DNA of 53,063 nucleotides from contig JALVDV010000011.1 of assembly GCA_027008775.1 (NCBI GenBank), forward strand, positions 1 to 53,063, written 5' to 3'. The notes beneath the pieces were generated by a model, which was given only the letters and a program-made list of their open reading frames with translations, was not told where the DNA came from and ran no database searches. The stretch is from Candidatus Moraniibacteriota bacterium. Its GTDB lineage: Bacteria; Patescibacteriota; Minisyncoccia; Moranbacterales; DUUL01. The position numbers and the translations under genes were made by a program. Of this stretch, positions 30,367-48,916 are shown piece after piece. The stretch's first letter is position 1; every line of letters starts with the position of its first letter.

Positions 30367-31459
30367 ATGGAAATCAAAAAGGAACTCAAAGAAATAAAAG
30401 ATAAAATCTCGCGTTTGCGAGACCATCTTTGACCGGGAAGACTGGGCGGGAAAAATAGAAAAAATCAAGAATGAATTAAATAATCAGAGTATTTGGAGCG
30501 ACCACCGGAAAGTTTCCGAGCTATCCCAAAAACTCAACGGTCTGGAAGAAAAAAGTAAGCTTTGGCAAAAAATTAACGACTCTTTTCAGGCGTTGGCGAT
30601 TTTGAGTAATGATCTGGCAGACAGCTTGACCAAGGGTGGAGATAAGAAAATAAATCTGGACGAAACTTCTTTTTTTAGCGAACAAATAACCGAACTACGG
30701 AGTGATTTAAAAAAATTGGAGGAGTTTGTTAAATTTAGTGGACCATATGATTCCGGCGGGGCTGTTGTCAATATTGTTGCCGGAGCCGGTGGAACCGATG
30801 CTCAGGATTGGGTGGAAATGTTGCTAAAAATGTATTTGCGCTTTGCCGAAAAGCAAGGCTGGCAAGCCAAAATTTTGGAAAAAAGCGAGGGAGCGGAGGC
30901 TGGCCTAAAAAGTGTGACCGTAGAGATGACAGGTTCTTTGGTCTATGGTAAAATGAAACAGGAAAGCGGAGTGCATCGTTTGGTCCGGCTTTCACCTTTT
31001 AACAGTGGGCATTCCCGGGAGACCTCTTTTGCTTTGGTGGAAGTTCTGCCCTTGTTGAACAAAAAAGTGGAGATAGAAATAAATCCCAAGGATTTGCGAG
31101 TGGACACTTTTCGTTCTTCCGGCGCCGGCGGACAAAGTGTCAACACTACCGACAGCGCTGTCAGAATTACTCATCTGCCCACCGGCCTGGTGGCCACTTG
31201 TCAGAATGAGCGCTCCCAATTGCAAAATAAGGAAAAAGCCCTGGCTATCCTTAAAGCCCGACTAGTAAAAAAAATGGCAGAAGAGCGCGTTAAAAAAATC
31301 AATGAATTAAAGGGTGAAAGAAAGAAGGCCGAGTGGGGAAACCAAAAAAGATCCTATGTTCTGCATCCCTACAAGTTAGTTAAAGATCATCAAAGCAAGC
31401 GAGAAAGTGCAGCTGTAGAAAAGATATTGGCCGGAGATCTGCAATTGATTCAAAATTAA
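30367..31459 (+). CDS. prfB: peptide chain release factor 2, requires a programmed +1 frameshift: join(30367..30429,30431..31459)
   Basis: The ATG at 30367 opens 21 codons ending ...CAT CTT TGA C (CTT 30427-30429, TGA 30430-32), the canonical CUU UGA C shift site. The +1 frame is open from 30431 and contains the SPF and GGQ motifs. The total is about 363 aa. Confidence 0.9.
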
Positions 31460-33249: not shown

Positions 33250-34338
33250 ATGCCGGACAAAAAACAAATGAAAAAAAAATCAAATCATATTTTTAAGAAA
33301 ATTTTTGCCCGAGACGCCTCTCCCAAAATTATTTTTGGACTAATTGCCATCTTGCTTTTATCTTTGCTAATATTTCTGGGAGCATACCCTTACATCAGCC
33401 CCCGCATCAATCAATCATTGAAACAAATTTATCAATTCGCGCCCCTGCCGGTTGCTAAAATTAAAACAACAACAATTAACAGTCGGCAACTCTACCAAAA
33501 TTTAACGGCGGTCAAACACTTTTATCTTTCTTTCAACGGAGAAAAAAAAGGCACTCGTATAGATTTCTCCACACCGGAGGGAAAAGTAAGACTGGCAATT
33601 AAAGAGAAAGAGATTTTAAACAAAATGATAGAAGACGTTATTATCCGGGCTTTAGCGGAGGAGCGAGGAATTAAAGTTTCTCCAGTAGAGGTGGATAGAG
33701 CGATTGAGGAATCTTTGCAAAAGGCCGGTAGCGATTACCAAAGATTAGCCTTAAGCCTGCGACAGCGTTACAACTGGACCGTCGCCGACTTTAAAAACAA
33801 AGTGGTTAAAAACCAACTCTATCGCAAAAAACTTTTTCAATGGTATTCGCAAAAGGTAAAAAAAACAGCCAGTTACGAGTCAGTTCAAGCAGTCAGGGAA
33901 AAAATTAAAAAGGAACCTGACAAATTTACTCAAATCGCCAAAGAACATCAGTCGGAATTAAACAGCCATAATCCGGAAAAAATAGGTTGGATAAATGAAC
34001 AATCTGTCATTCCGGAGGTTGGAAAAGTTTTGGTTAAACTTCAGCCAAACGAAATTTCTCCCGTTATTGTTTCTCCTCTCGGTTTGCATATTGTCCAGTT
34101 ACTGGACAAGAGGGAAGATGAAAAAGGAGAACGAGAATTTCTTTTTCAACACCTTTTCATTCCCACGCCCGGCTTTGTTCAATGGCTGCAAGCGCAAAAA
34201 AGACATTTCCCGGTTAAAATTCTTTTTCGGGAATATCAATGGGATAAGAGTAAAGGAGAGGCAATCTTCCGTTCAGAAAAAATGAGAGAATTGGAAAAAA
34301 TTATCAGACTGAAATCAGAGGGAGACCCCAGTTTGTAA
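33250..34338 (+). CDS. membrane-anchored parvulin-type peptidyl-prolyl isomerase (SurA/PrsA-like)
   Basis: N-terminal TM, a SurA_N-like chaperone region, and a rotamase-like segment GWINEQSVIPEVGKVLVKLQPNEISPVIVSPLGLHIVQL. Confidence 0.75.
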   Translation: MPDKKQMKKKSNHIFKKIFARDASPKIIFGLIAILLLSLLIFLGAYPYISPRINQSLKQIYQFAPLPVAKIKTTTINSRQLYQNLTAVKHFYLSFNGEKKGTRIDFSTPEGKVRLAIKEKEILNKMIEDVIIRALAEERGIKVSPVEVDRAIEESLQKAGSDYQRLALSLRQRYNWTVADFKNKVVKNQLYRKKLFQWYSQKVKKTASYESVQAVREKIKKEPDKFTQIAKEHQSELNSHNPEKIGWINEQSVIPEVGKVLVKLQPNEISPVIVSPLGLHIVQLLDKREDEKGEREFLFQHLFIPTPGFVQWLQAQKRHFPVKILFREYQWDKSKGEAIFRSEKMRELEKIIRLKSEGDPSL

Positions 34339-34406: not shown

Positions 34407-37400
34407 ATGTCGGAACAAGAAGAGAATGGACAAGAAAAAACAAGGCAATCAGAAAAACAAAGTCACTCGGGCAATGAAGAAAAAGCTTCCTATCAAAGCC
34501 GTTATGGTGACTTGTCCGCCACTTTAAGAAAATTACGTAAAATAAAAAGAGCGTCGGAAGAGGAGGAGGCCGCTTACTATGCCAAGGAACTCAATCTGCC
34601 TTACTTGGATCTAAATATTTTTCCCATTTCTCCAAATGACATAGACATTATACCCGAGGAAGAAGCTCGTCGGGCCCACGTAGTGGTAATTCGTCGCCTG
34701 GATAGGGAATTGATGCTGGGAGCCCTTGATCCCACCAAAAAAGAAGTACAAAAAATCATTAGGAGGTTATCAGAAAAGGAAGGTTTTCAGGTTAGAGTTT
34801 TTGTTGTCTCTCAAAGCTCCTTGGAGGAAGCTTGGGAGAATTACAAAAAGAAAAACCTGGTAGATGTTTTTGATTATTTAAGACTGCAATTGAAAGGGGA
34901 AGATCTGGAAAAGTTTGAAAATGACATCAAAGATATTATGGATTTGGGGAAAAGAATAAGAGAAATTTCCACCACCAAGCTTCTTGATATCATTATTGCC
35001 GGAGCGATTAAGTTGGATGCCTCGGATATCCATTTGGAACCGGAAAAAGACGGGGTTACTGTTCGCTACAGAATAGACGGCGTTCTTCACAAAGTGACAA
35101 CCCTGCCATCAGATGTTTATCCTCATATCGTTTCCCGTATTAAAATACTGAGCAAGATGCTTCTTAATGTCCACGATGTTCCTCAAGATGGACGCTTTAG
35201 CATCAGTATCTCCGGAGAAGACAAATTGGATGTCAGAGCTTCTGTTCTGCCCGGCAACTACGGCGAAAATATAGTGCTACGTCTGCTCAACAGAGATATT
35301 TCCCAATTCAATCTGGAAAAATTGGGACTGACCGGCAAAAATTATGAGTGGCTACTAAAAGAAGTACAAAAAAAACAAGGAATGATTATCAATTCCGGTC
35401 CCACCGGTAGCGGAAAAACAACCACCCTTTACGCCTTAATCAACAAAATAAATTCCGAAGACAAAAAAATTATCAGTATTGAAGACCCTATAGAATACCA
35501 AGTGCCGGGAGTTAGACAGACACAGGTGGACAGGGAGAGAGGATATACCTTTGCCAGTGGCCTGCGTTCTATCGTGAGGCAGGATCCGGACGTTATTCTG
35601 GTTGGAGAAATCCGAGACGATGAAACTGCCGCCATAGCTATTGATGCAGCTCTTACCGGTCATCTGGTTCTTACCACCGTTCATGCCAATACTTCCGCCG
35701 GTGTTGTCAGTCGTCTCTTTGATTTGAGTATTAAACCGGATAGTATTGCCTCGGCCGTTAATGTAATTATAGCGCAAAGATTGGTTAGAACACTTTGTCC
35801 CTACTGCAAAGAAAAGTACAAACCGGCGCCGGAAACGGTTGACAATCTAAAAAAAATGCTTTCCCTAATTTCCCCCAAAGCGCAAATTGAGATACCGAGA
35901 GAAATAAAATATCTCTGGAAGGCTAAAGGTTGTTTAAAGTGTAAAGGTTTTGGTTATAAGGGTAGGGTGGGAATTTTTGAAGTAATGCCTATAGACAGAA
36001 AAATTAAGAAGTTGATAGAAGCAATGGCTTCAGCCGATGAAATAAGGCAAGCGGCTCTGGAGAACGGTTTAATAACTTATGAACAAGACGGAATTCTAAA
36101 GGCCATCGCCGGACAGACTTCTTTGGCTGAAGTGCAGCGAGTAGCCGGGCGGGGCGATTATCTTTTAAAACTTTACGAACAGATAGTTATTCAGACGCTT
36201 GCCAGAGGAATTGAAATCTCCGGAAAAATTATTAGAGCCGTAGAGAGAATTAAAGGAAATTATCAAGCGCTTAAACAACTTGTGCAAGAGGCTGATTCTC
36301 GAGATAAGATAAAATATATTCTAGCCACCGGTTTGGTTTTGCAAGCCGGCGATATCCACATTGAGCCCGGCGAGAACACCTTCAAAATCCGTTACCGAAT
36401 AGACGGAATTTTACATAATCTAGTGGAATTGCCCATGAGTGAATTTTTGACAGTCCTTAATGAAATTAAATCTCTCTTGGGAGTGGAGATAGAAAAAAGG
36501 GAAGGAGTTTTAGACGGTCGTTTCCGCATTGTGTTGTCAAAAAGAAACAAAGAATTTAAGCCGGAAAATATAGACGTAAGAGTTTCCATCATTCTGGGCG
36601 GTTTCGGAGATATTGTGGTTATGCGCTTACTTAACCAGAAAACACAAAATATTGATTTAGACAAATTGGGCCTGCGAAAATACAATGTTCAAAAGCTAAA
36701 ACGTAACATTTTTAAACCCGACGGGATAGTTTTAAATACCGGTCCCACCGGCAGTGGAAAAACCACCACTTTGTACAGCGCTCTAAAAGCCATTTACAAA
36801 CCGGAACTAAAAATCATAACCGTGGAAGACCCGATTGAATACCGCCTGGATGGCATTATTCAAACCCAGGTTAATGAAAAAGAAGGCTACACTTTTTCTA
36901 CAGCCTTGCGAAGCCTTCTGCGACAAAACCCTGATATTATTATGATTGGAGAAATTCGCGATGAGGAAACCGCCCAAATTGCTTACCAAGCCGCTTTGAC
37001 CGGGCACCTGGTTCTCAGTACATTACACACCAACAATGCCGCCGGTTCGGTCAGGCGACTGGTCAATATGGGGGTTAACTTGGATGATGTTGCTTCCGGT
37101 AGTAACTGTTTTATGGCCCAACGTTTAGTTAGAAAACTTTGTCCTTACTGTAAAAAAGAAACAAAACCCTCCCCAGCAGAAAGAGAGCTGATTGAAAAAA
37201 TCATTTCCTCCATTTCTCCGCTTACCAAGATAAAAATCCCAAAGCTGGAAAAAATATATCAACCGGTTGGTTGTCCTCACTGCAATCATTTGGGCTATCA
37301 AGGGCAGTTGCCAATTTCCGAAGTCTTGGAAGTTGATGAGGAAATGGAAAAATTCATCACCACCGATCCTACCACTTCGGAGTTATATGAAAAAGCGATT

Positions 37401-37526
37401 CAAAAAGGCATGCTTTCTTTGAGTCAGGATGGAGTTCTCAGGGTGGTGGAAGGAATTACCACTTTGGAAGAAATCTCCAGAGTTTCCGAAGAGGTTTACC
37501 TGGAAGACTCAAAGAAAGATAATTAA
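34407..37526 (+). CDS. tandem-duplicated GspE/PilB-family secretion ATPase (T2SSE_N domain plus two complete ATPase modules in one polypeptide)
   Basis: 1039-aa ORF. Module 1 (aa ~190-580) has GPTGSGKTTT, SIEDPIEY, DPDVILVGEIRD, TGHLVLTTVHAN and CPYC...CLKC. Module 2 (aa ~635-1030) has GPTGSGKTTT, TVEDPIEY, NPDIIMIGEIRD, TGHLVLSTLHTN and CPYC...CPHC. Confidence 0.85.
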   Translation: MSEQEENGQEKTRQSEKQSHSGNEEKASYQSRYGDLSATLRKLRKIKRASEEEEAAYYAKELNLPYLDLNIFPISPNDIDIIPEEEARRAHVVVIRRLDRELMLGALDPTKKEVQKIIRRLSEKEGFQVRVFVVSQSSLEEAWENYKKKNLVDVFDYLRLQLKGEDLEKFENDIKDIMDLGKRIREISTTKLLDIIIAGAIKLDASDIHLEPEKDGVTVRYRIDGVLHKVTTLPSDVYPHIVSRIKILSKMLLNVHDVPQDGRFSISISGEDKLDVRASVLPGNYGENIVLRLLNRDISQFNLEKLGLTGKNYEWLLKEVQKKQGMIINSGPTGSGKTTTLYALINKINSEDKKIISIEDPIEYQVPGVRQTQVDRERGYTFASGLRSIVRQDPDVILVGEIRDDETAAIAIDAALTGHLVLTTVHANTSAGVVSRLFDLSIKPDSIASAVNVIIAQRLVRTLCPYCKEKYKPAPETVDNLKKMLSLISPKAQIEIPREIKYLWKAKGCLKCKGFGYKGRVGIFEVMPIDRKIKKLIEAMASADEIRQAALENGLITYEQDGILKAIAGQTSLAEVQRVAGRGDYLLKLYEQIVIQTLARGIEISGKIIRAVERIKGNYQALKQLVQEADSRDKIKYILATGLVLQAGDIHIEPGENTFKIRYRIDGILHNLVELPMSEFLTVLNEIKSLLGVEIEKREGVLDGRFRIVLSKRNKEFKPENIDVRVSIILGGFGDIVVMRLLNQKTQNIDLDKLGLRKYNVQKLKRNIFKPDGIVLNTGPTGSGKTTTLYSALKAIYKPELKIITVEDPIEYRLDGIIQTQVNEKEGYTFSTALRSLLRQNPDIIMIGEIRDEETAQIAYQAALTGHLVLSTLHTNNAAGSVRRLVNMGVNLDDVASGSNCFMAQRLVRKLCPYCKKETKPSPAERELIEKIISSISPLTKIKIPKLEKIYQPVGCPHCNHLGYQGQLPISEVLEVDEEMEKFITTDPTTSELYEKAIQKGMLSLSQDGVLRVVEGITTLEEISRVSEEVYLEDSKKDN

Positions 37527-37540
37527 AAAAATACTTAAAA

Positions 37541-37960
37541 ATGTCAGCGGAAAATGAACAGTTTTTCAGCTTAGTTACAGCCATTCTTTTATTTGGTTTA
37601 GCTGTCACCATTTTTACCGTATTTTTCAGAAATCCTTACCGGAATTTTCAAAGCAAACCTGTTTTTTCCAATCAATCCAGCCAAAATGTGAGCATAACCA
37701 GCCTGTCACTTTTTTATTCGGGGGTTTTTCTCATTTGTTTTGCCTTATTCAGCGCTGTATTATTTTGGTTGAAAGTAAAGAGAAAAAGGTCGTCAGACCG
37801 ATATCTGTTGGCGCTTACTTCTCTGCGTCAAGCCTCCCTGCTGGCGCTATTTGTAATTTGCCTTCTTATTTTTCAGAGTTGGCGTATCTTGGTCTGGTGG
37901 GACGCTCTGCTCCTTGCTTTAGCGCTTCTGTTGATTGAATTCTACTTCTTTCTCAAGTAA
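37541..37960 (+). CDS. hypothetical 4-TM membrane protein
   Basis: 139-aa hydrophobic ORF starting 14 nt after the ATPase stop. Confidence 0.55.
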   Translation: MSAENEQFFSLVTAILLFGLAVTIFTVFFRNPYRNFQSKPVFSNQSSQNVSITSLSLFYSGVFLICFALFSAVLFWLKVKRKRSSDRYLLALTSLRQASLLALFVICLLIFQSWRILVWWDALLLALALLLIEFYFFLK

Positions 37961-38602: not shown

Positions 38603-40258
38603 GTGTCGCCAAAGAAAAAGAAACAATCAATCTTGGGAAAAATTTTCCAAAGAATTAAAAATTGCCTCACTCCTCATTGGAATATTGCCAACGGTTTCTC
38701 CTCTTTCTTGGTTGGTTTTCTAGTGGGAACAGCTTTAATTACCGGCACAGAGGTTAAATTTCATCAACTTATATCACTGGCAGTGCTGTCGCTACTATTG
38801 TTTGTCGGCATTATTCTTTACTTCTCCTCATCCCCTCACTTCAAAATTTATTTTTTATTCTTCCTTCTTCTGGGGACGAGTCTTGCTGTTTGGCGCGCGG
38901 AAAAAATTTATCAGAACAGTCAAGGCTGGTTGCCCGGTCAATACCAAGGAGTGGCGGAACTAAGCGGACTTCCAGAAGAACAAAGTCATTTCCGCCGGGT
39001 CTATTTCCAAATAATCGGCTTACAAGAAAAGCGGGGCAGACTGCAAAAAGAAAAAGAAAGGATATTGACTTTTCTGCCCCAGCGACAAAATTTGCGATTT
39101 GGAGAAAAATATTTTCTGCAATGTCAGCTGGAAAATCCCAACAGTAATTTCTTCGGCTTCAACTACCAAAAATATCTGGCCGGCAAAAAAGTTTACCAAA
39201 TTTGTCGACATAGCAAAGTGAAAACAATGCCAAAACAAACAATCTCCTTCAAGAGAAAGACTTTGCAATTTTATTGGCAAAAAAGCAAGAACAAACTTTT
39301 TAATTTAATTTATCAGCTCAACCAAATTTTGGCAGAGAAAATAAACATCCTTTTTCCTCCTCCGCAAAATGCCTATCTGGCCGGCCTTCTGTTGGGAGGA
39401 AGCAATAGACTGCCAGCTGATTTATTGGATGATTTCAAGAGAACCGGAACCATTCACACTGTCGCTGTTTCCGGTTTCAACATCACCATTATTGCCGGGG
39501 CGGTTATGTGGCTGCTGATTGCTCTGGGTTTTTGGCGAAAACAAGCTTTTTGGTTTGCCGTTCTGGCCTTGTTTTTATTTATAGCGATGATTGGCTTTCC
39601 TCCTTCCGGGGTTAGGGCCGGCATTATGGGTATAATTTTACTTTATGCTTTGCAAGAAGGAGAACTGGTTAGTTCTTTGCGAGTTATTCTTTTTACCGGC
39701 GCCCTGATGGTGTTTTTCTCACCCTTCATCCTCCTTTACGATGTCGGCTTTCAACTTTCTTTTTTGGCCACTATGGGAATAATTTTGTTATATGACCCTT
39801 TACAAAAATATCTTCAAAAAATAATTGGCTTGAAAAGAGATTTCTTGCAATTAATTTCCGGTATTTCCCTAACTCTCTCTGCCCAATTGGGCGTTCTTGG
39901 AATTTTATTGTACACTTTTCACAGTTTTTCTTTTATTTCCATTCTGGTCAATCTGCTTATTTTACCGGCTATTCCCTTAATTATGTTGGGAGGCGTCCTG
40001 ACTATTTTCATTTCCACTTTGGACTCTTTCTTGCATCTAAACAATATTTTAAGCTTACTTTTCGCCCTACCCACCGATTGGTTGTTGCAGATGGAGATTT
40101 TTATCATTCATAAATTAGCGCAAATTCCCGGAGCCTTCTGGCAATTCTCTCATTTTCCACCCCAGTTATTGATAGGTTACTATTTAGGTCTGGGATTAAT
40201 CTTGGTTTTCATTTATTGCCGGCGACTACACAACAGACAACGGGACGAATCTCAATAA
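38603..40258 (+). CDS. comEC: ComEC/Rec2 DNA internalisation channel (DUF4131 plus Competence domains, lacking the beta-lactamase domain)
   Basis: 551-aa polytopic ORF with a GTG start. RTGTIHTVAVSGFNITII and GFQLSFLAT are Competence-domain motifs. Confidence 0.85.
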   Translation: MSPKKKKQSILGKIFQRIKNCLTPHWNIANGFSSFLVGFLVGTALITGTEVKFHQLISLAVLSLLLFVGIILYFSSSPHFKIYFLFFLLLGTSLAVWRAEKIYQNSQGWLPGQYQGVAELSGLPEEQSHFRRVYFQIIGLQEKRGRLQKEKERILTFLPQRQNLRFGEKYFLQCQLENPNSNFFGFNYQKYLAGKKVYQICRHSKVKTMPKQTISFKRKTLQFYWQKSKNKLFNLIYQLNQILAEKINILFPPPQNAYLAGLLLGGSNRLPADLLDDFKRTGTIHTVAVSGFNITIIAGAVMWLLIALGFWRKQAFWFAVLALFLFIAMIGFPPSGVRAGIMGIILLYALQEGELVSSLRVILFTGALMVFFSPFILLYDVGFQLSFLATMGIILLYDPLQKYLQKIIGLKRDFLQLISGISLTLSAQLGVLGILLYTFHSFSFISILVNLLILPAIPLIMLGGVLTIFISTLDSFLHLNNILSLLFALPTDWLLQMEIFIIHKLAQIPGAFWQFSHFPPQLLIGYYLGLGLILVFIYCRRLHNRQRDESQ

Positions 40259-40288: not shown

Positions 40289-41146
40289 ATGCCACTTAGT
40301 TTAGAAAAAATCTCTTTAACCACACTTTTTCTTTTTTCAATTCTTCTCGGTTTTTTCTTTTTAGCAGAAAGAAAAGAAGAACAGTGGCCACTGGTTGTTT
40401 CTTTTTTGGACGTGGGACAGGGAGATGCTATTTTGATAAATTATCAAAACAAATATCAAATCTTAATTGACGGCGGACCCGATGAAAGGAAACTTATGAG
40501 AGAATTAGCAAAGACTATGCCCTTGGGCGATCATCAAATAGAAATTATCATCAGCACTCATCCGGACAGAGATCATTTTGTCGGATTATTGGCAGTTGCG
40601 AAGAAGTATCATTCCCAAGCATTTTTTTACAATGGCCAGAGGACAAATGACGAACTCTGGCAAGAACTGAGACAAGTTTTAGAACGCCAAAGAGTTTCAC
40701 AATATATTCTTCTGGAAGGGTCAAGTCTAAAAATCGGACAAGACTTTTTGCTGAATTTTTTCAATCCCGATAAAGTTGACAAAGGTTTGCAGGCTAAAAA
40801 TAAAAATTCCATTGTAGCCAGACTTGACTACAAACAAAACAGCTTTCTTTTTACCGGAGATGCCGACTATGATGCTGAGGCCGATATGATTTTTGATAAA
40901 GAAAACATTGATGATATTGACTGGTTGAAAGTTGGTCACCACGGGTCTCAGACATCCACTTCCGATTTTTTTCTGGCTCGCGTTAAACCAAAAAACGCAA
41001 TTATTTCCGTCGGCAAAAACAATTATGGTCATCCCAATCCGGAAGTCTTGGAGAAATTGACCAAAGTCGGAGCTCATATTTTTCGCACAGACAAGATGGG
41101 CACTGTCAGTATTTTCTGCCGTCAAAAATGCTTTGCAACCAAATAA
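40289..41146 (+). CDS. ComEC-type metallo-beta-lactamase domain protein encoded as a separate ORF
   Basis: 285 aa with an N-terminal TM, then FLDVGQGDAILI, STHPDRDHFVGL, FTGDA and VGHHGS, as in the C-terminal domain of full-length ComEC. Confidence 0.85.
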   Translation: MPLSLEKISLTTLFLFSILLGFFFLAERKEEQWPLVVSFLDVGQGDAILINYQNKYQILIDGGPDERKLMRELAKTMPLGDHQIEIIISTHPDRDHFVGLLAVAKKYHSQAFFYNGQRTNDELWQELRQVLERQRVSQYILLEGSSLKIGQDFLLNFFNPDKVDKGLQAKNKNSIVARLDYKQNSFLFTGDADYDAEADMIFDKENIDDIDWLKVGHHGSQTSTSDFFLARVKPKNAIISVGKNNYGHPNPEVLEKLTKVGAHIFRTDKMGTVSIFCRQKCFATK

Positions 41147-46729: not shown

Positions 46730-48916
46730 ATGTTGCCTGCGACCACGACAACTAACAAAAACCTTTTCAAAAAACTCTTTAAATTTTTGTTGTTGACTTT
46801 TATTGTCTTCAGTTTCTTCTTATTAATTTATTCTGTGGCCCAAGCTGACAGTGAGATAATCATCAATGAAATTTTACCCAATCCCTCAGGGCGAGATTCC
46901 GGTCGAGAATTCATTGAACTATACAATCCAGGCTCACAAGATATCTCTTTGGCAAATTGGCAAGTGCGCAAAAAAGCGCGCTCCGGTTCTATTAAAACCC
47001 ATCATTTTTCAGAAAACGAAACCGTCAAAGCCAAAGAATATTTTATTCTGACATTCAACGGTCTCAACAACGATGGCGCCGAGATTGAAATAGTAGATGA
47101 TGCTGGTGAAAAAATTGATAGTATGAATTACAAAAACGCTCCGGAGGGTTTGAGCTACAATCGCTCCGCCGAGGAACAAGATTTTTATCTGGCTGAGCCA
47201 ACCCCTGCCGAAAAAAACAAACCGGACCCTCGTCAGCGAAAATATCCTAAAATTCTCATCAATGAAATTTTCCCCCATCCCTCCGCTGACGAAAAGAACA
47301 AAGAATTTATTGAATTATATAACCCCAATCGGGAAGAGATTAATCTCCGTGGTTGGGTGCTGAGAGATGCTAGCCGGACCGGAAAATATATTTTCAAAAA
47401 AGATAAAATCATCAAGTCACTGGGCTACCTGGTTGTCTATCGTTCCGATTTTAAATTTGCCCTAAATAACTCCGGCTCGGAAAATGTTTTTTTATTAGCT
47501 CCCAATGATGATTTTTCCCAAGGAGAGTTTAAAGACAAAATCAGTTACCAAAACAGTTTTACCAATCGTAGCTATAATCGCGACGAAAAAGAAAATGACA
47601 AATGGTATTGGACTGAGCCAAGTCCCAATCAGGAAAACAAACCCAATCCTTTGCGAAAGAAATATCCCGCTCTTTTCATCACGGAAATTCTCCCCAACCC
47701 TCTTTCCGAGGAAGAAAAAAATGAATACATTGAAATTTACAATCCTCAGACATCCACTGTCACCCTTGCCGGTTGGGCACTCAGTGACAAAACCGGCCAA
47801 CAATATCTTTTCTCCAAAGAAGAAATAAAACCGCAACAATATCTGGTTGTTTACCGTTCCAATTTTAAATTTGCTCTGAACAATTCCGGTTCGGAGGAAG
47901 TTGAACTATTGGCTCCCAACCAAAAAGTTATTCACTCTCTATCTTACCGACAAGCGCCGGAAGGAATATCCTACAGTTTTGATTTGGAAAAGCACGCTTG
48001 GCGCTGGACAGAATTTCAAACTCCCGGGCAAGCCAATAAATTTAATCAACCTCTCAATTTTCAAGTTAAGCTACCGCGAAATATTTATCAAAACGTTAAA
48101 GCCAAATTCAAATTACGAAATTTGCAAAGTGACAGTAAAAAAGAATTAAAATTCAAGTGGGACTTTGGTGATGGGCATCACAGCTATTTGCAAAACCCTT
48201 CGCACATTTACCAACAAAAGGGCAAATTCCAATTGATGGTCAGCGTCTTTGACGGCCGGGAAAGAAAAACTAAACAATTCATTGTTGAAGTGAAAAAATA
48301 TCCTCATCATCCAATAAAAATAGTGGAAATAATGCCCAATCCGGCCGGCAAAGACACTGGGCATGAATACATAGTTTTGGAAAACAAATCCTCTAAAAAA
48401 ATCAACTTGGCCGATTATTTTATCGCCACCGGCAAAAGCAAGAAAAAACTTATCAGGCACCCGATTTACAAAGATTTTATTATCAAATCGCACCATCGTC
48501 GCAAATTGTTTAATAAAAAAATATGTAAATTCTCCTTACCAAATACAAAGGGGGAGGCGCGACTGCTCGCCCCGGATGGTGAAATTGTTGACAAAGTAAA
48601 ATATCAAAAAGAAAAAATCGCCGATAACGAGAAATATATTCTTGCCACAAACAAGCGATGGATTTGGCTGAAAGAAAAACCGACCAATTTAACGGCGACC
48701 CCTGCCCAAGCGCTGGCAAAAGAAAAGGGAAGTCTTGACCCCACACTGAATATTTTCCGTCGGCAATGTGACGCCAGACAGCAAATAATTATTTACAACT
48801 GGTTCTACCGCTTAAAAACAAAACAAAATAAATTTCAAATTTTACTTTGGCAAAAAATAATCTCCTCATTATTCCCCGCGCCAAACAACAAACCACCCAA
48901 AACTTATTTTTATTAA
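46730..48916 (+). CDS. secreted or anchored protein with four lamin-tail domains (LTD) and one PKD domain
   Basis: 728 aa with an N-terminal hydrophobic signal or anchor. The LTD signature I(I/L)INEI.PNP...EFIELYNP...L.GW recurs at aa ~42, 174, 314 and 528. The PKD motif FKWDFGDGHHSYLQNPSHIYQQKGKF lies at aa ~475. Confidence 0.85.
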   Translation: MLPATTTTNKNLFKKLFKFLLLTFIVFSFFLLIYSVAQADSEIIINEILPNPSGRDSGREFIELYNPGSQDISLANWQVRKKARSGSIKTHHFSENETVKAKEYFILTFNGLNNDGAEIEIVDDAGEKIDSMNYKNAPEGLSYNRSAEEQDFYLAEPTPAEKNKPDPRQRKYPKILINEIFPHPSADEKNKEFIELYNPNREEINLRGWVLRDASRTGKYIFKKDKIIKSLGYLVVYRSDFKFALNNSGSENVFLLAPNDDFSQGEFKDKISYQNSFTNRSYNRDEKENDKWYWTEPSPNQENKPNPLRKKYPALFITEILPNPLSEEEKNEYIEIYNPQTSTVTLAGWALSDKTGQQYLFSKEEIKPQQYLVVYRSNFKFALNNSGSEEVELLAPNQKVIHSLSYRQAPEGISYSFDLEKHAWRWTEFQTPGQANKFNQPLNFQVKLPRNIYQNVKAKFKLRNLQSDSKKELKFKWDFGDGHHSYLQNPSHIYQQKGKFQLMVSVFDGRERKTKQFIVEVKKYPHHPIKIVEIMPNPAGKDTGHEYIVLENKSSKKINLADYFIATGKSKKKLIRHPIYKDFIIKSHHRRKLFNKKICKFSLPNTKGEARLLAPDGEIVDKVKYQKEKIADNEKYILATNKRWIWLKEKPTNLTATPAQALAKEKGSLDPTLNIFRRQCDARQQIIIYNWFYRLKTKQNKFQILLWQKIISSLFPAPNNKPPKTYFY

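Follow-up and report, generated by a model that had tools for sequence, protein, structure and literature searches.

A single open reading frame (ORF) that encodes two PilB/GspE-type secretion ATPase modules in tandem was found in a Candidatus Moraniibacteriota genome (contig JALVDV010000011.1), and this tandem architecture is real and conserved in hundreds of related genomes. The stretch of DNA that was analyzed, hereafter the window, is 53,063 nt long with 38.9% G+C, and positions are counted within it. The ORF, at 34407-37526 on the forward strand, is best explained as a vertically inherited Patescibacteria form of PilB, the ATPase that extends type IV pili, and we regard this explanation as a whole as probable. 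These ultrasmall bacteria live as episymbionts, and type IV pili have a central place in this lifestyle. More tentatively, and at a chance that we would place just short of even, we propose that covalent duplication of PilB has evolved repeatedly in Patescibacteria, and that three chains of the duplicated protein would form a six-module ring matched one-to-one to the duplicated PilC trimer and carrying two separable active sites.

The two-module PilB is apparently undescribed, though its sequences are public under generic annotation. No description of a tandem PilB/GspE/T2SSE ATPase was found in the full-text literature searched, which included a 2024 PilB review, a 2019 superfamily survey, a paper on the pili of Saccharibacteria and one on the protein families of these bacteria. 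The initial annotation of this DNA had known of no precedent for the fusion. This holds for descriptions in the literature, but not for the architecture itself, which is common in public Patescibacteria data under the generic names GspE/PulE or PilB.

Two ATPase modules behind one N-terminal domain

The ORF begins with ATG and encodes 1039 amino acids (aa) in a single uninterrupted frame (ORF listing and translation). No stop codon was found on translation of this frame between 34407 and 37526, and the linker segment 36147-36293, through which the initial annotation had read a continuous frame, is likewise stop-free. In the Pfam search, PF00437 (T2SSE) was matched in two stretches, of which the first spans aa 190-578, for a summed score of 759.6 bits, whereas PF05157 (MshEN/T2SSE_N) was matched once, at aa 62-146, with 40.8 bits and with only the T2SSE_N part of the profile covered. 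When aa 151-600 were compared with aa 591-1039 by BLASTP, 170 of 407 positions were identical (42%, E = 3e-122). The claims that one ORF holds two complete PilB/GspE modules, that a T2SSE_N-type domain precedes the first of them only, and that a profile search would return two T2SSE matches and one N-terminal match were thus all borne out. Instead of the canonical layout of one unit of N1 domain (N1D), N2 domain (N2D) and C-terminal ATPase domain (CTD) per chain, the protein has two N2D-CTD units and one N1D. Its features, in order along the chain, are the following:

34407..37526, forward strand: tandem PilB ("PilB-PilB") ORF, 1039 aa plus stop
34407..34514, forward strand: N-terminal tail, aa 1-36, predicted disordered and weakly conserved (predicted local distance difference test, pLDDT, <50; mean column conservation of aa 1-54, 0.28)
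34569..34844, forward strand: N1 domain (T2SSE_N / C-terminal part of MshEN), aa ~55-146, single copy (PF05157 at aa 62-146)
34845..34973, forward strand: helical N1D-N2D linker, aa 147-189 (AlphaFold2 helices 151-161 and 165-178)
34974..35306, forward strand: module 1 N2 domain, aa 190-300, with QDGR(263) and R277 (Pfam, homolog alignment, Foldseek)
35307..36152, forward strand: module 1 C-terminal ATPase domain, aa 301-582 (motifs, alignment)
36153..36308, forward strand: inter-module linker, aa 583-634, helical, with a low-confidence hinge at aa 586-599 (AlphaFold2; conservation 0.48)
36309..36650, forward strand: module 2 N2 domain, aa 635-748, with DGR(705) and R725 (BLASTP, alignment)
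36651..37496, forward strand: module 2 C-terminal ATPase domain, aa 749-1030 (motifs, alignment, profiles)

The N-terminal domain was also searched with a regular expression for the motif by which MshEN domains bind cyclic diguanylate, RLGxx(L/V/I)(L/V/I)xxG(L/V/I)(L/V/I), and no match was obtained. A cyclic diguanylate-binding MshEN identity was rejected on the absence of this RLGxx-type motif. The AlphaFold2 model has one long helix in the N-terminal region (aa 36-62), as opposed to the four-helix subdomain of the MshE type.

The hallmarks of the T2SSE superfamily, namely the RecA-like motifs of the CTD and the N2D arginines ahead of the ATPase domain, are found twice. The motif positions given in the initial annotation proved correct, with Walker A beginning at nt 35397 and 36741 and the other motifs present twice at equivalent positions:

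Walker A (GPTGSGKTTT), forward strand: module 1 aa 331, nt 35397-35426; module 2 aa 779, nt 36741-36770
Asp box (EDPIEY), forward strand: module 1 aa 359-364; module 2 aa 807-812
Walker B, forward strand: module 1 aa 391, nt 35577-35618; module 2 aa 839, nt 36921-36962
His box, forward strand: module 1 aa 417-426; module 2 aa 865-874
Four cysteines, forward strand: module 1 aa 464, 467, 509 and 512; module 2 aa 912, 915, 956 and 959

The cysteine pairs read CPYC at aa 464 and aa 912, GCLKC at aa 508 and GCPHC at aa 955.

Conservation of these motifs was counted in an alignment of 119 tandem homologs. In both modules, the Walker A lysine, the Asp-box glutamates, the Walker B GE(I/V)RD and both His-box histidines are present in 118-119 of the 119 sequences, as are all four cysteines of the CxxC...CxxC tetracysteine, and the second N2D arginine (R277 in module 1, R725 in module 2) is present in every sequence in each module. 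The first N2D arginine is found in 119/119 sequences in module 2 (aa 705) and in 96/119 in module 1 (aa 263, nt 35193-35195), where 22 sequences have histidine instead; this Arg-to-His replacement is the sole hint of asymmetry at a catalytic position. Among the columns that are at least 90% conserved, 90 are the same in both modules, and 5 conserved columns differ between them. Both modules retain every residue class for ATP binding and hydrolysis together with the zinc site, and they are apparently active. The two are also under similar purifying selection, at a mean pairwise identity among orthologs of 65% (module 1) and 60% (module 2).

The modules were scored separately against NCBIfam, with module 1 scored together with N1D, and gave the following values:

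Module 1 with N1D: PilB 481 bits, GspE 470 bits, PilT 184 bits
Module 2: PilB 414 bits, GspE 435 bits, PilT 152 bits

The curated cut-offs are 675.65 bits for PilB (TIGR02538), 319.1 for PilT (TIGR01420) and 300 for ComGA (NF041000). The whole protein scores 884 bits against TIGR02538, a value reached only by summing the two modules, and each single module falls below 675.65; indeed, no single module reaches the curated equivalog cut-off for PilB, GspE or ComGA. Against ComGA the modules score 253 and 218 bits, and only their sum (468) exceeds the cut-off. Neither module comes near the PilT cut-off, and the zinc insertion is present in both. The best PDB matches by sequence are PilB, GspE and PilF for both modules. 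The full-length AlphaFold2 model has a mean pLDDT of 81.4 and a predicted template modeling score (pTM) of 0.56, and a single-chain AlphaFold2 model of the CTD1-linker-N2D2 fragment has a pTM of 0.69. In a Foldseek comparison the full-length model matched the PilB/PilF core with a template modeling (TM) score of 0.90 at ~3 Å, one module being aligned per PDB chain. By these measures, both modules are of the PilB/GspE type and not PilT.

Occurrence and duplication history

Homologs were first sought among 5.8 billion proteins in clusters at 90% identity. Among the matches listed there, at least 120 clusters are 53-95% identical to the query, almost all covering at least 92% of it, and all but two of these 120 are 1006-1111 aa long and carry T2SSE. 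A search seeded with a relative added ~113 further clusters (~1005-1067 aa), bringing the two-module clusters to more than 230 in all. Where the source names them, they are called "GspE/PulE family protein" or "type IV pilus assembly protein PilB," and the named hosts are nearly all Patescibacteria (Candidatus Moranbacteria, Moraniibacteriota, Paceibacterota, Parcubacteria, Patescibacteria group). Several of the tandem genes lie on contigs of 0.3-1.27 Mb, and those for P0039, P0114 and P0323 are on contigs of more than 1 Mb. Among 1.84 billion representatives at 50% identity searched with HMMER, the best 150 matches included 13 full-length two-module proteins, and nearly all of the remainder are single-module proteins of ~550-600 aa. 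Stop-free two-module ORFs were present at 13 Patescibacteria loci, of which 11 are in genomes of GTDB species and 2 on metagenome contigs; the 11 species-representative metagenome-assembled genomes (MAGs) are labeled Moraniibacteriota, Paceibacterota, Minisyncoccia and others. The survey for fused and split versions suggested in the initial annotation returned fused clusters in these numbers, along with separate adjacent paralogs outside Patescibacteria, in Fermentibacteria, Omnitrophota and others.

The separate paralogs, and in-frame stops in two related loci, could be taken to mean that two adjacent pilB paralogs were fused here by a sequencing or assembly error, but a local frameshift or misassembly is effectively excluded because more than 230 independent clusters from different assemblies share the same continuous frame and a conserved linker, and we consider the chance of such an artifact to be negligible. 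The adjacent but separate paralogs, two or three per locus, were found at L022, L023, L046, L050, L051 and L060 (Fermentibacteria, Omnitrophota and other MAGs), and they are the unfused analog of the tandem protein. As for the stops, the in-frame TGA at 11399-11401 of L007 falls exactly at a conserved glycine (KCN-G-LGYKG), which is consistent with genetic code 25 and suggests that a lineage of the Gracilibacteria/Absconditabacteria type also carries the tandem gene. The other, an in-frame TAA within module 2 at 3253-3255 of L005, marks either a pseudogene or a consensus error. In the source organism of the window UGA is a stop and translation table 11 is fitting, since prfB (release factor 2, 30367-31459) has the programmed +1 frameshift site CTT TGA C at 30427-30433. 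Owing to this site, prfB appears in the mechanical ORF list as its 288-aa downstream part only.

The history of the modules was examined in neighbor-joining (NJ) trees with Kimura distances and 100 bootstrap replicates. The Patescibacteria modules and the stand-alone single-module PilBs of Patescibacteria fall into one clade (72/100). Two other tandem proteins point to a recurrent duplication. In P0132, whose gene lies in the same polA-tsaE neighborhood, the halves share 70-74% identity and group as sisters in 100/100 replicates, and in P0128 they share 52-54% and do so in 97/100. The repeat unit in both proteins starts just after N1D (aa ~130-555 vs. ~562-990), so the inter-module linker is a former N1D-N2D linker, and that of the tandem ORF is the diverged counterpart of its own N1D-N2D linker. 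The duplicated unit thus seems to be linker, N2 domain and ATPase domain, placed in tandem behind a single N1 domain. Its recurrence can be explained either by several duplications or by halves that were homogenized by gene conversion.

Odd forms with a different number of modules or additional domains were also observed. P0017 (L003 10001-14383, on a 77-kb contig of JGI 3300022698) is 1460 aa long and has three complete T2SSE modules and one N1 domain. It is not an assembly repeat, since its modules 2 and 3 are only 58% identical; the first CxxC is absent in modules 1 and 3. It is a singleton, and no further three-module protein was found among the best 120 matches to it. P0138 (L076 8001-11144; GCA_964384625.1, CAYLNH010000035.1) is an independent fusion, a soluble chain of 1047 aa without transmembrane segments, in which two T2SSF-like (PilC cytoplasmic) domains are followed by two T2SSE modules; its halves are sisters in 80/100 bootstraps. 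A Walker A regular expression gave no match in P0138. Its host lies outside Patescibacteria, as its neighbors are an ECF (extracytoplasmic function) sigma factor, a sulfatase and BatA/MoxR.

Gene order bears on the relationship between the tandem and the single-module forms. Among 14 tandem loci (±5 kb), TsaE occurs in 8, PolA, Fpg and a histidine kinase in 5 each, RuvB in 4 and a DHH protein in 3, and ruvB lies directly downstream of the tandem gene in L001, L002, L005 and L017. Among 11 single-module Patescibacteria PilB loci, TsaE occurs in 6, PolA 5'-3' exonuclease domains in 5, RuvB in 3 and T2SSF in 2. The pair tsaE-polA is divergently upstream of the stand-alone PilB locus in L009-L014 and L077. 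Because the tandem PilBs and the closest single-module PilBs share TsaE/PolA/RuvB surroundings, they look like positional orthologs that have become internally duplicated in some lineages. On this reading, Patescibacteria carry a stand-alone PilB locus in a housekeeping neighborhood, distinct from pilus operons. The neighborhood of tsaE, polA, fpg, holA and ruvB is kept across distant Patescibacteria, which may reflect either inherited gene order alone or a tie to DNA transactions. Large secreted proteins with LTD and PKD repeats were also seen near stand-alone PilB (window 46730-48916, L002 14632-16215, L003 5864-8131), and such LTD/PKD proteins recur within a few kb of the locus in both the tandem and the single-module forms, with LTD proteins at 7 of the 11 single-module loci.

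Assembly of the motor and its genomic context

The PilB hexamer consists of six rigid packing units, each of N2D(n) and CTD(n+1), on flexible linkers; it takes up a C2 CCOCCO conformation and has been proposed to turn PilC in 60° steps (PMC6858323). PilC/PulF has been modeled as a trimer in which each monomer's two cytoplasmic domains face six ATPase protomers (PMC11656802; PMC10790770). The assembly that we regard as most likely for the tandem protein, with a chance somewhat better than even, is one six-module ring of three chains that drives the trimeric PilC platform. Three tandem chains would close a single ring of alternating modules 1 and 2; the ring would be pseudo-six-fold with true three-fold symmetry and would bear only three N1 domains. 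Sequential ATP binding and hydrolysis round the ring would turn and lift the PilC platform, and pilins would be added to the filament. In a C2 CCOCCO cycle, opposite ring positions would be occupied by one module 1 and one module 2, and hence all six sites would have to fire, which we propose as the reason that both modules have escaped decay. Every chain would face a single PilC monomer with its two cytoplasmic domains, and the motor would then mirror the internal duplication of the platform.

Several observations lend indirect support to the three-chain ring. Module 1 and module 2 are near-equivalent in conservation; the numbers of modules per chain that were observed, 1, 2 and 3, are all divisors of six; platform domains and ATPase modules stand at 2:2 in P0138; and the same duplication unit, starting just after N1D, seems to have arisen repeatedly.

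Other observations weigh against the explanation as a whole. The deep branches of the NJ trees are very short and poorly supported, and the monophyly of module 1 and of module 2 in the main family reaches only 53-56/100; the phylogeny of the halves called for in the initial annotation thus placed both of them inside the Patescibacteria PilB clade, as noted above, but is weak at its deep nodes. The sister halves of P0132 and P0128 could stem from intragenic gene conversion and not from new duplications, and the three-module P0017 and P0138 are each a single cluster. The pTM values of the two single-chain models leave the arrangement of the modules unfixed. A double ring is sterically possible, because in the GspE-Hcp1 fusions (4KSS) a second ring can reportedly stack coaxially on the C-terminal face of GspE. 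Furthermore, pilC, pilM/N/O, pilT, pilD and pilin genes are absent from the whole 53-kb window; the initial annotation had found no pilT, pilC or pilMNO genes adjacent to the ORF. Regular-expression matches for pilin-type signal peptides in the window were only false positives in prfB and dprA, the families listed within ±5 kb of the 14 tandem loci include no T2SSF, and the window holds no type IVa pilus gene cluster. The tandem gene was never seen beside pilC, pilM, pilN, pilO or pilT. The PilC, PilM/N/O and pilin partners would have to lie elsewhere in the genome.

Six chains could instead form two hexameric rings stacked on one axis, one built of module 1 and the other of module 2, with 12 ATPase sites in all. 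Only the membrane-proximal ring would touch PilC, and the other would add power, regulate or bind another partner. We consider both the stacked form and this division of labor unlikely, though they are the strongest of the alternatives. Stacked rings are the usual outcome of tandem P-loop ATPase duplications in one chain (KaiC, p97/NSF, ClpB), and the GspE-Hcp1 fusions are said to show such a ring on the C-terminal face. Each module keeps the features for a homomeric ring of its own, the ~50-residue linker has a flexible hinge at aa 586-599, and the AlphaFold2 monomer models do not settle how the modules are arranged. A distal ring away from PilC/PilM should diverge, however, whereas the conservation of module 2 (60%) comes close to that of module 1 (65%), with only 5 class-specific columns. 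The pairing of two platform domains with two ATPase modules in P0138 fits modules that lie side by side, a three-module form would mean 18 sites, and 12-18 ATPase sites per motor would probably be costly for a minimal cell.

If the three-chain ring is true, it predicts three chains of ~350 kDa in all and a defined stoichiometry with the PilC trimer. The coupling of the PilB hexamer to PilC rotation, C2 vs. C3, is still argued from homohexamers, in which a single site cannot be mutated alone; two diverged modules in one chain fix the subunit order and allow site-specific Walker mutations. The tandem protein would then be a natural "linked-subunit" type IV pilus motor, and the one-, two- and three-module forms together with P0138 would reveal the stoichiometric logic of motor and platform.

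The genomic context of the ORF was considered with respect to a different function, namely that tandem PilB is the motor of a reduced DNA-uptake pilus tied to the adjacent ComEC and the nearby DprA. The window is a housekeeping stretch of a reduced genome (pheST, pyruvate kinase, rpsB-tsf, RNase J, prfB-ftsE-ftsX, dnaJ, dprA, uvrA), and the genes next to the ORF are as follows:

33250..34338, forward strand: PpiC/SurA-like (PrsA-type) foldase, directly upstream
37541..37960, forward strand: 139-aa ORF with about four transmembrane segments, 15 nt past the pilB stop, no Pfam family
38603-40258, forward strand: ComEC with Competence and DUF4131 domains, no fused metallo-beta-lactamase (MBL)
40289-41146, forward strand: separate metallo-beta-lactamase gene directly after ComEC

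The neighbors named in the initial annotation, a small multi-transmembrane protein and ComEC, were therefore correctly recognized. The separate MBL gene agrees with the reported near-complete lack of ComEC-MBL fusions in these bacteria, in which genes of type IV pili and of ComEC-based competence are widespread and enriched (PMC6744442). In addition, ComEC starts ~1.1 kb downstream, DprA and UvrA lie within 15 kb in the window, and recombination and repair genes (ruvB, polA, fpg, ruvA/C, recG) recur near the tandem gene elsewhere. A DNA-uptake motor is nevertheless improbable, more so than stacked rings. The order prfB-ftsE-ftsX-ppiC-tandem pilB-139-aa ORF is common to the window, L078 (95% identity), L079 and L004 (66%), but ComEC is adjacent only in the window and in L078 and is absent at this position in relatives at ≤66% identity, where the next gene downstream is RNase HII (L079) or pyruvate kinase (L004). 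When the neighbors in the window were compared by tblastn with 15 loci carrying an intact or interrupted tandem gene, ComEC was found only in L006, 5.5 kb away and on the other strand. A conserved ComEC link was thus rejected, and the step from a ComEC neighbor to a DNA-uptake pilus in the initial annotation is not supported. Single modules also score below the ComGA equivalog cut-off, and the recurring neighbors are housekeeping genes that flank the single-module orthologs as well, so that conserved ancestral order accounts for them and no functional link is needed. ComEC and the metallo-beta-lactamase gene are context and not a demonstrated part of the system.

The 139-aa ORF is kept in position with 78% identity in L078, 38% in L079 and 33% in L004, shares the C-terminal motif ILxWWDALL...LIExY, and may be a sub-clade-specific membrane partner. 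A promoter and terminator scan of 29.5-41.5 kb gave counts not above those of shuffles.

It is very improbable that one module is a degenerate regulatory pseudo-ATPase or that the chain fuses PilB (extension) with PilT (retraction), as the initial annotation had envisaged in proposing either merged extension and retraction functions or a split between a regulatory and a catalytic role. One copy often loses catalysis in duplicated ATPase subunits, for example in F1 alpha/beta, and the lack of pilT in the window and the histidine in place of the first module 1 arginine in 22/119 homologs could be read in this way. The catalytic motifs are invariant or nearly so in both modules across the 119 homologs with 5 differing columns, however, and the loss of catalytic residues in one module, which the initial annotation had named as grounds for a pseudo-ATPase domain, was not seen; a pseudo-ATPase module was rejected on this motif conservation. 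A PilT identity of module 2 was rejected on profile scores and the zinc site: both modules bear the tetracysteine, score as PilB/GspE (481 for module 1, 414-435 bits for module 2) far above their PilT scores (184 and 152 against a cut-off of 319), and belong to one clade with the Patescibacteria single-module PilBs (72/100).

Comparison with known systems

The closest known systems are PilB (Geobacter metallireducens 5TSG/5TSH, Myxococcus 3JC8) and Thermus PilF (5IT5/5OIU), with which the tandem protein shares the order of N1D, N2D and CTD, the Walker A, Asp box, Walker B and His box motifs, the N2D arginines and the tetracysteine zinc site, at ~41-42% identity, a TM score of 0.90 per module and a phmmer E of ~1e-106. 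In known PilBs each chain carries a single N2D-CTD module and the chains assemble into homohexamers, whereas here two modules follow each N1D, the gene lies outside any pil operon, and single modules score under the TIGR02538 cut-off. No PDB chain with two PilB/GspE modules was found, in support of the view in the initial annotation that PilB/GspE/PilF motors are homohexamers of single-module subunits.

The fold and motifs are also those of GspE/EpsE (1P9R, 4KSS, 4PHT), and module 2 scores marginally better on GspE (435) than on PilB (414). In contrast to GspE/EpsE, the tandem protein has two modules per chain, and genes of a type II secretion system are not nearby. Patescibacteria reportedly have neither an outer membrane nor secretin (PMC6744442).

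A likeness of another kind is to PilC/GspF/PulF, a different protein family with an internal duplication (two T2SSF domains) and pseudo-six-fold, true three-fold symmetry, which the tandem PilB would mirror on the motor side, the match in stoichiometry being our inference. In the superfamily survey of type IV filaments from 2019, internal duplication is given for the platform only and not for the ATPase (PMC6668835).

Two diverged motor modules in one organism are also known from paired-motor systems, such as PilB plus TfpB, which are separately encoded paralogous motors in Acinetobacter baylyi (PMC8213720), PilT plus PilU, and the adjacent pilB paralogs described above. In those systems each motor is a polypeptide of its own and is presumed to assemble into a hexamer by itself, whereas here the two are covalently joined at a fixed 1:1 ratio.

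Finally, the tandem PilB can be set beside tandem and alternating ring ATPases, with which it shares a duplicated ring-forming P-loop module that permits asymmetric specialization and single-site mutagenesis. KaiC, p97/NSF, ClpB and EccC are stacked, the A3B3 rings of F1/V1 have alternating in-plane paralogs, and ClpX subunits have been linked covalently by engineering. There is no family-level homology to these proteins, and one paralog in F1/V1 has lost catalysis, whereas both modules of the tandem PilB keep their motifs.

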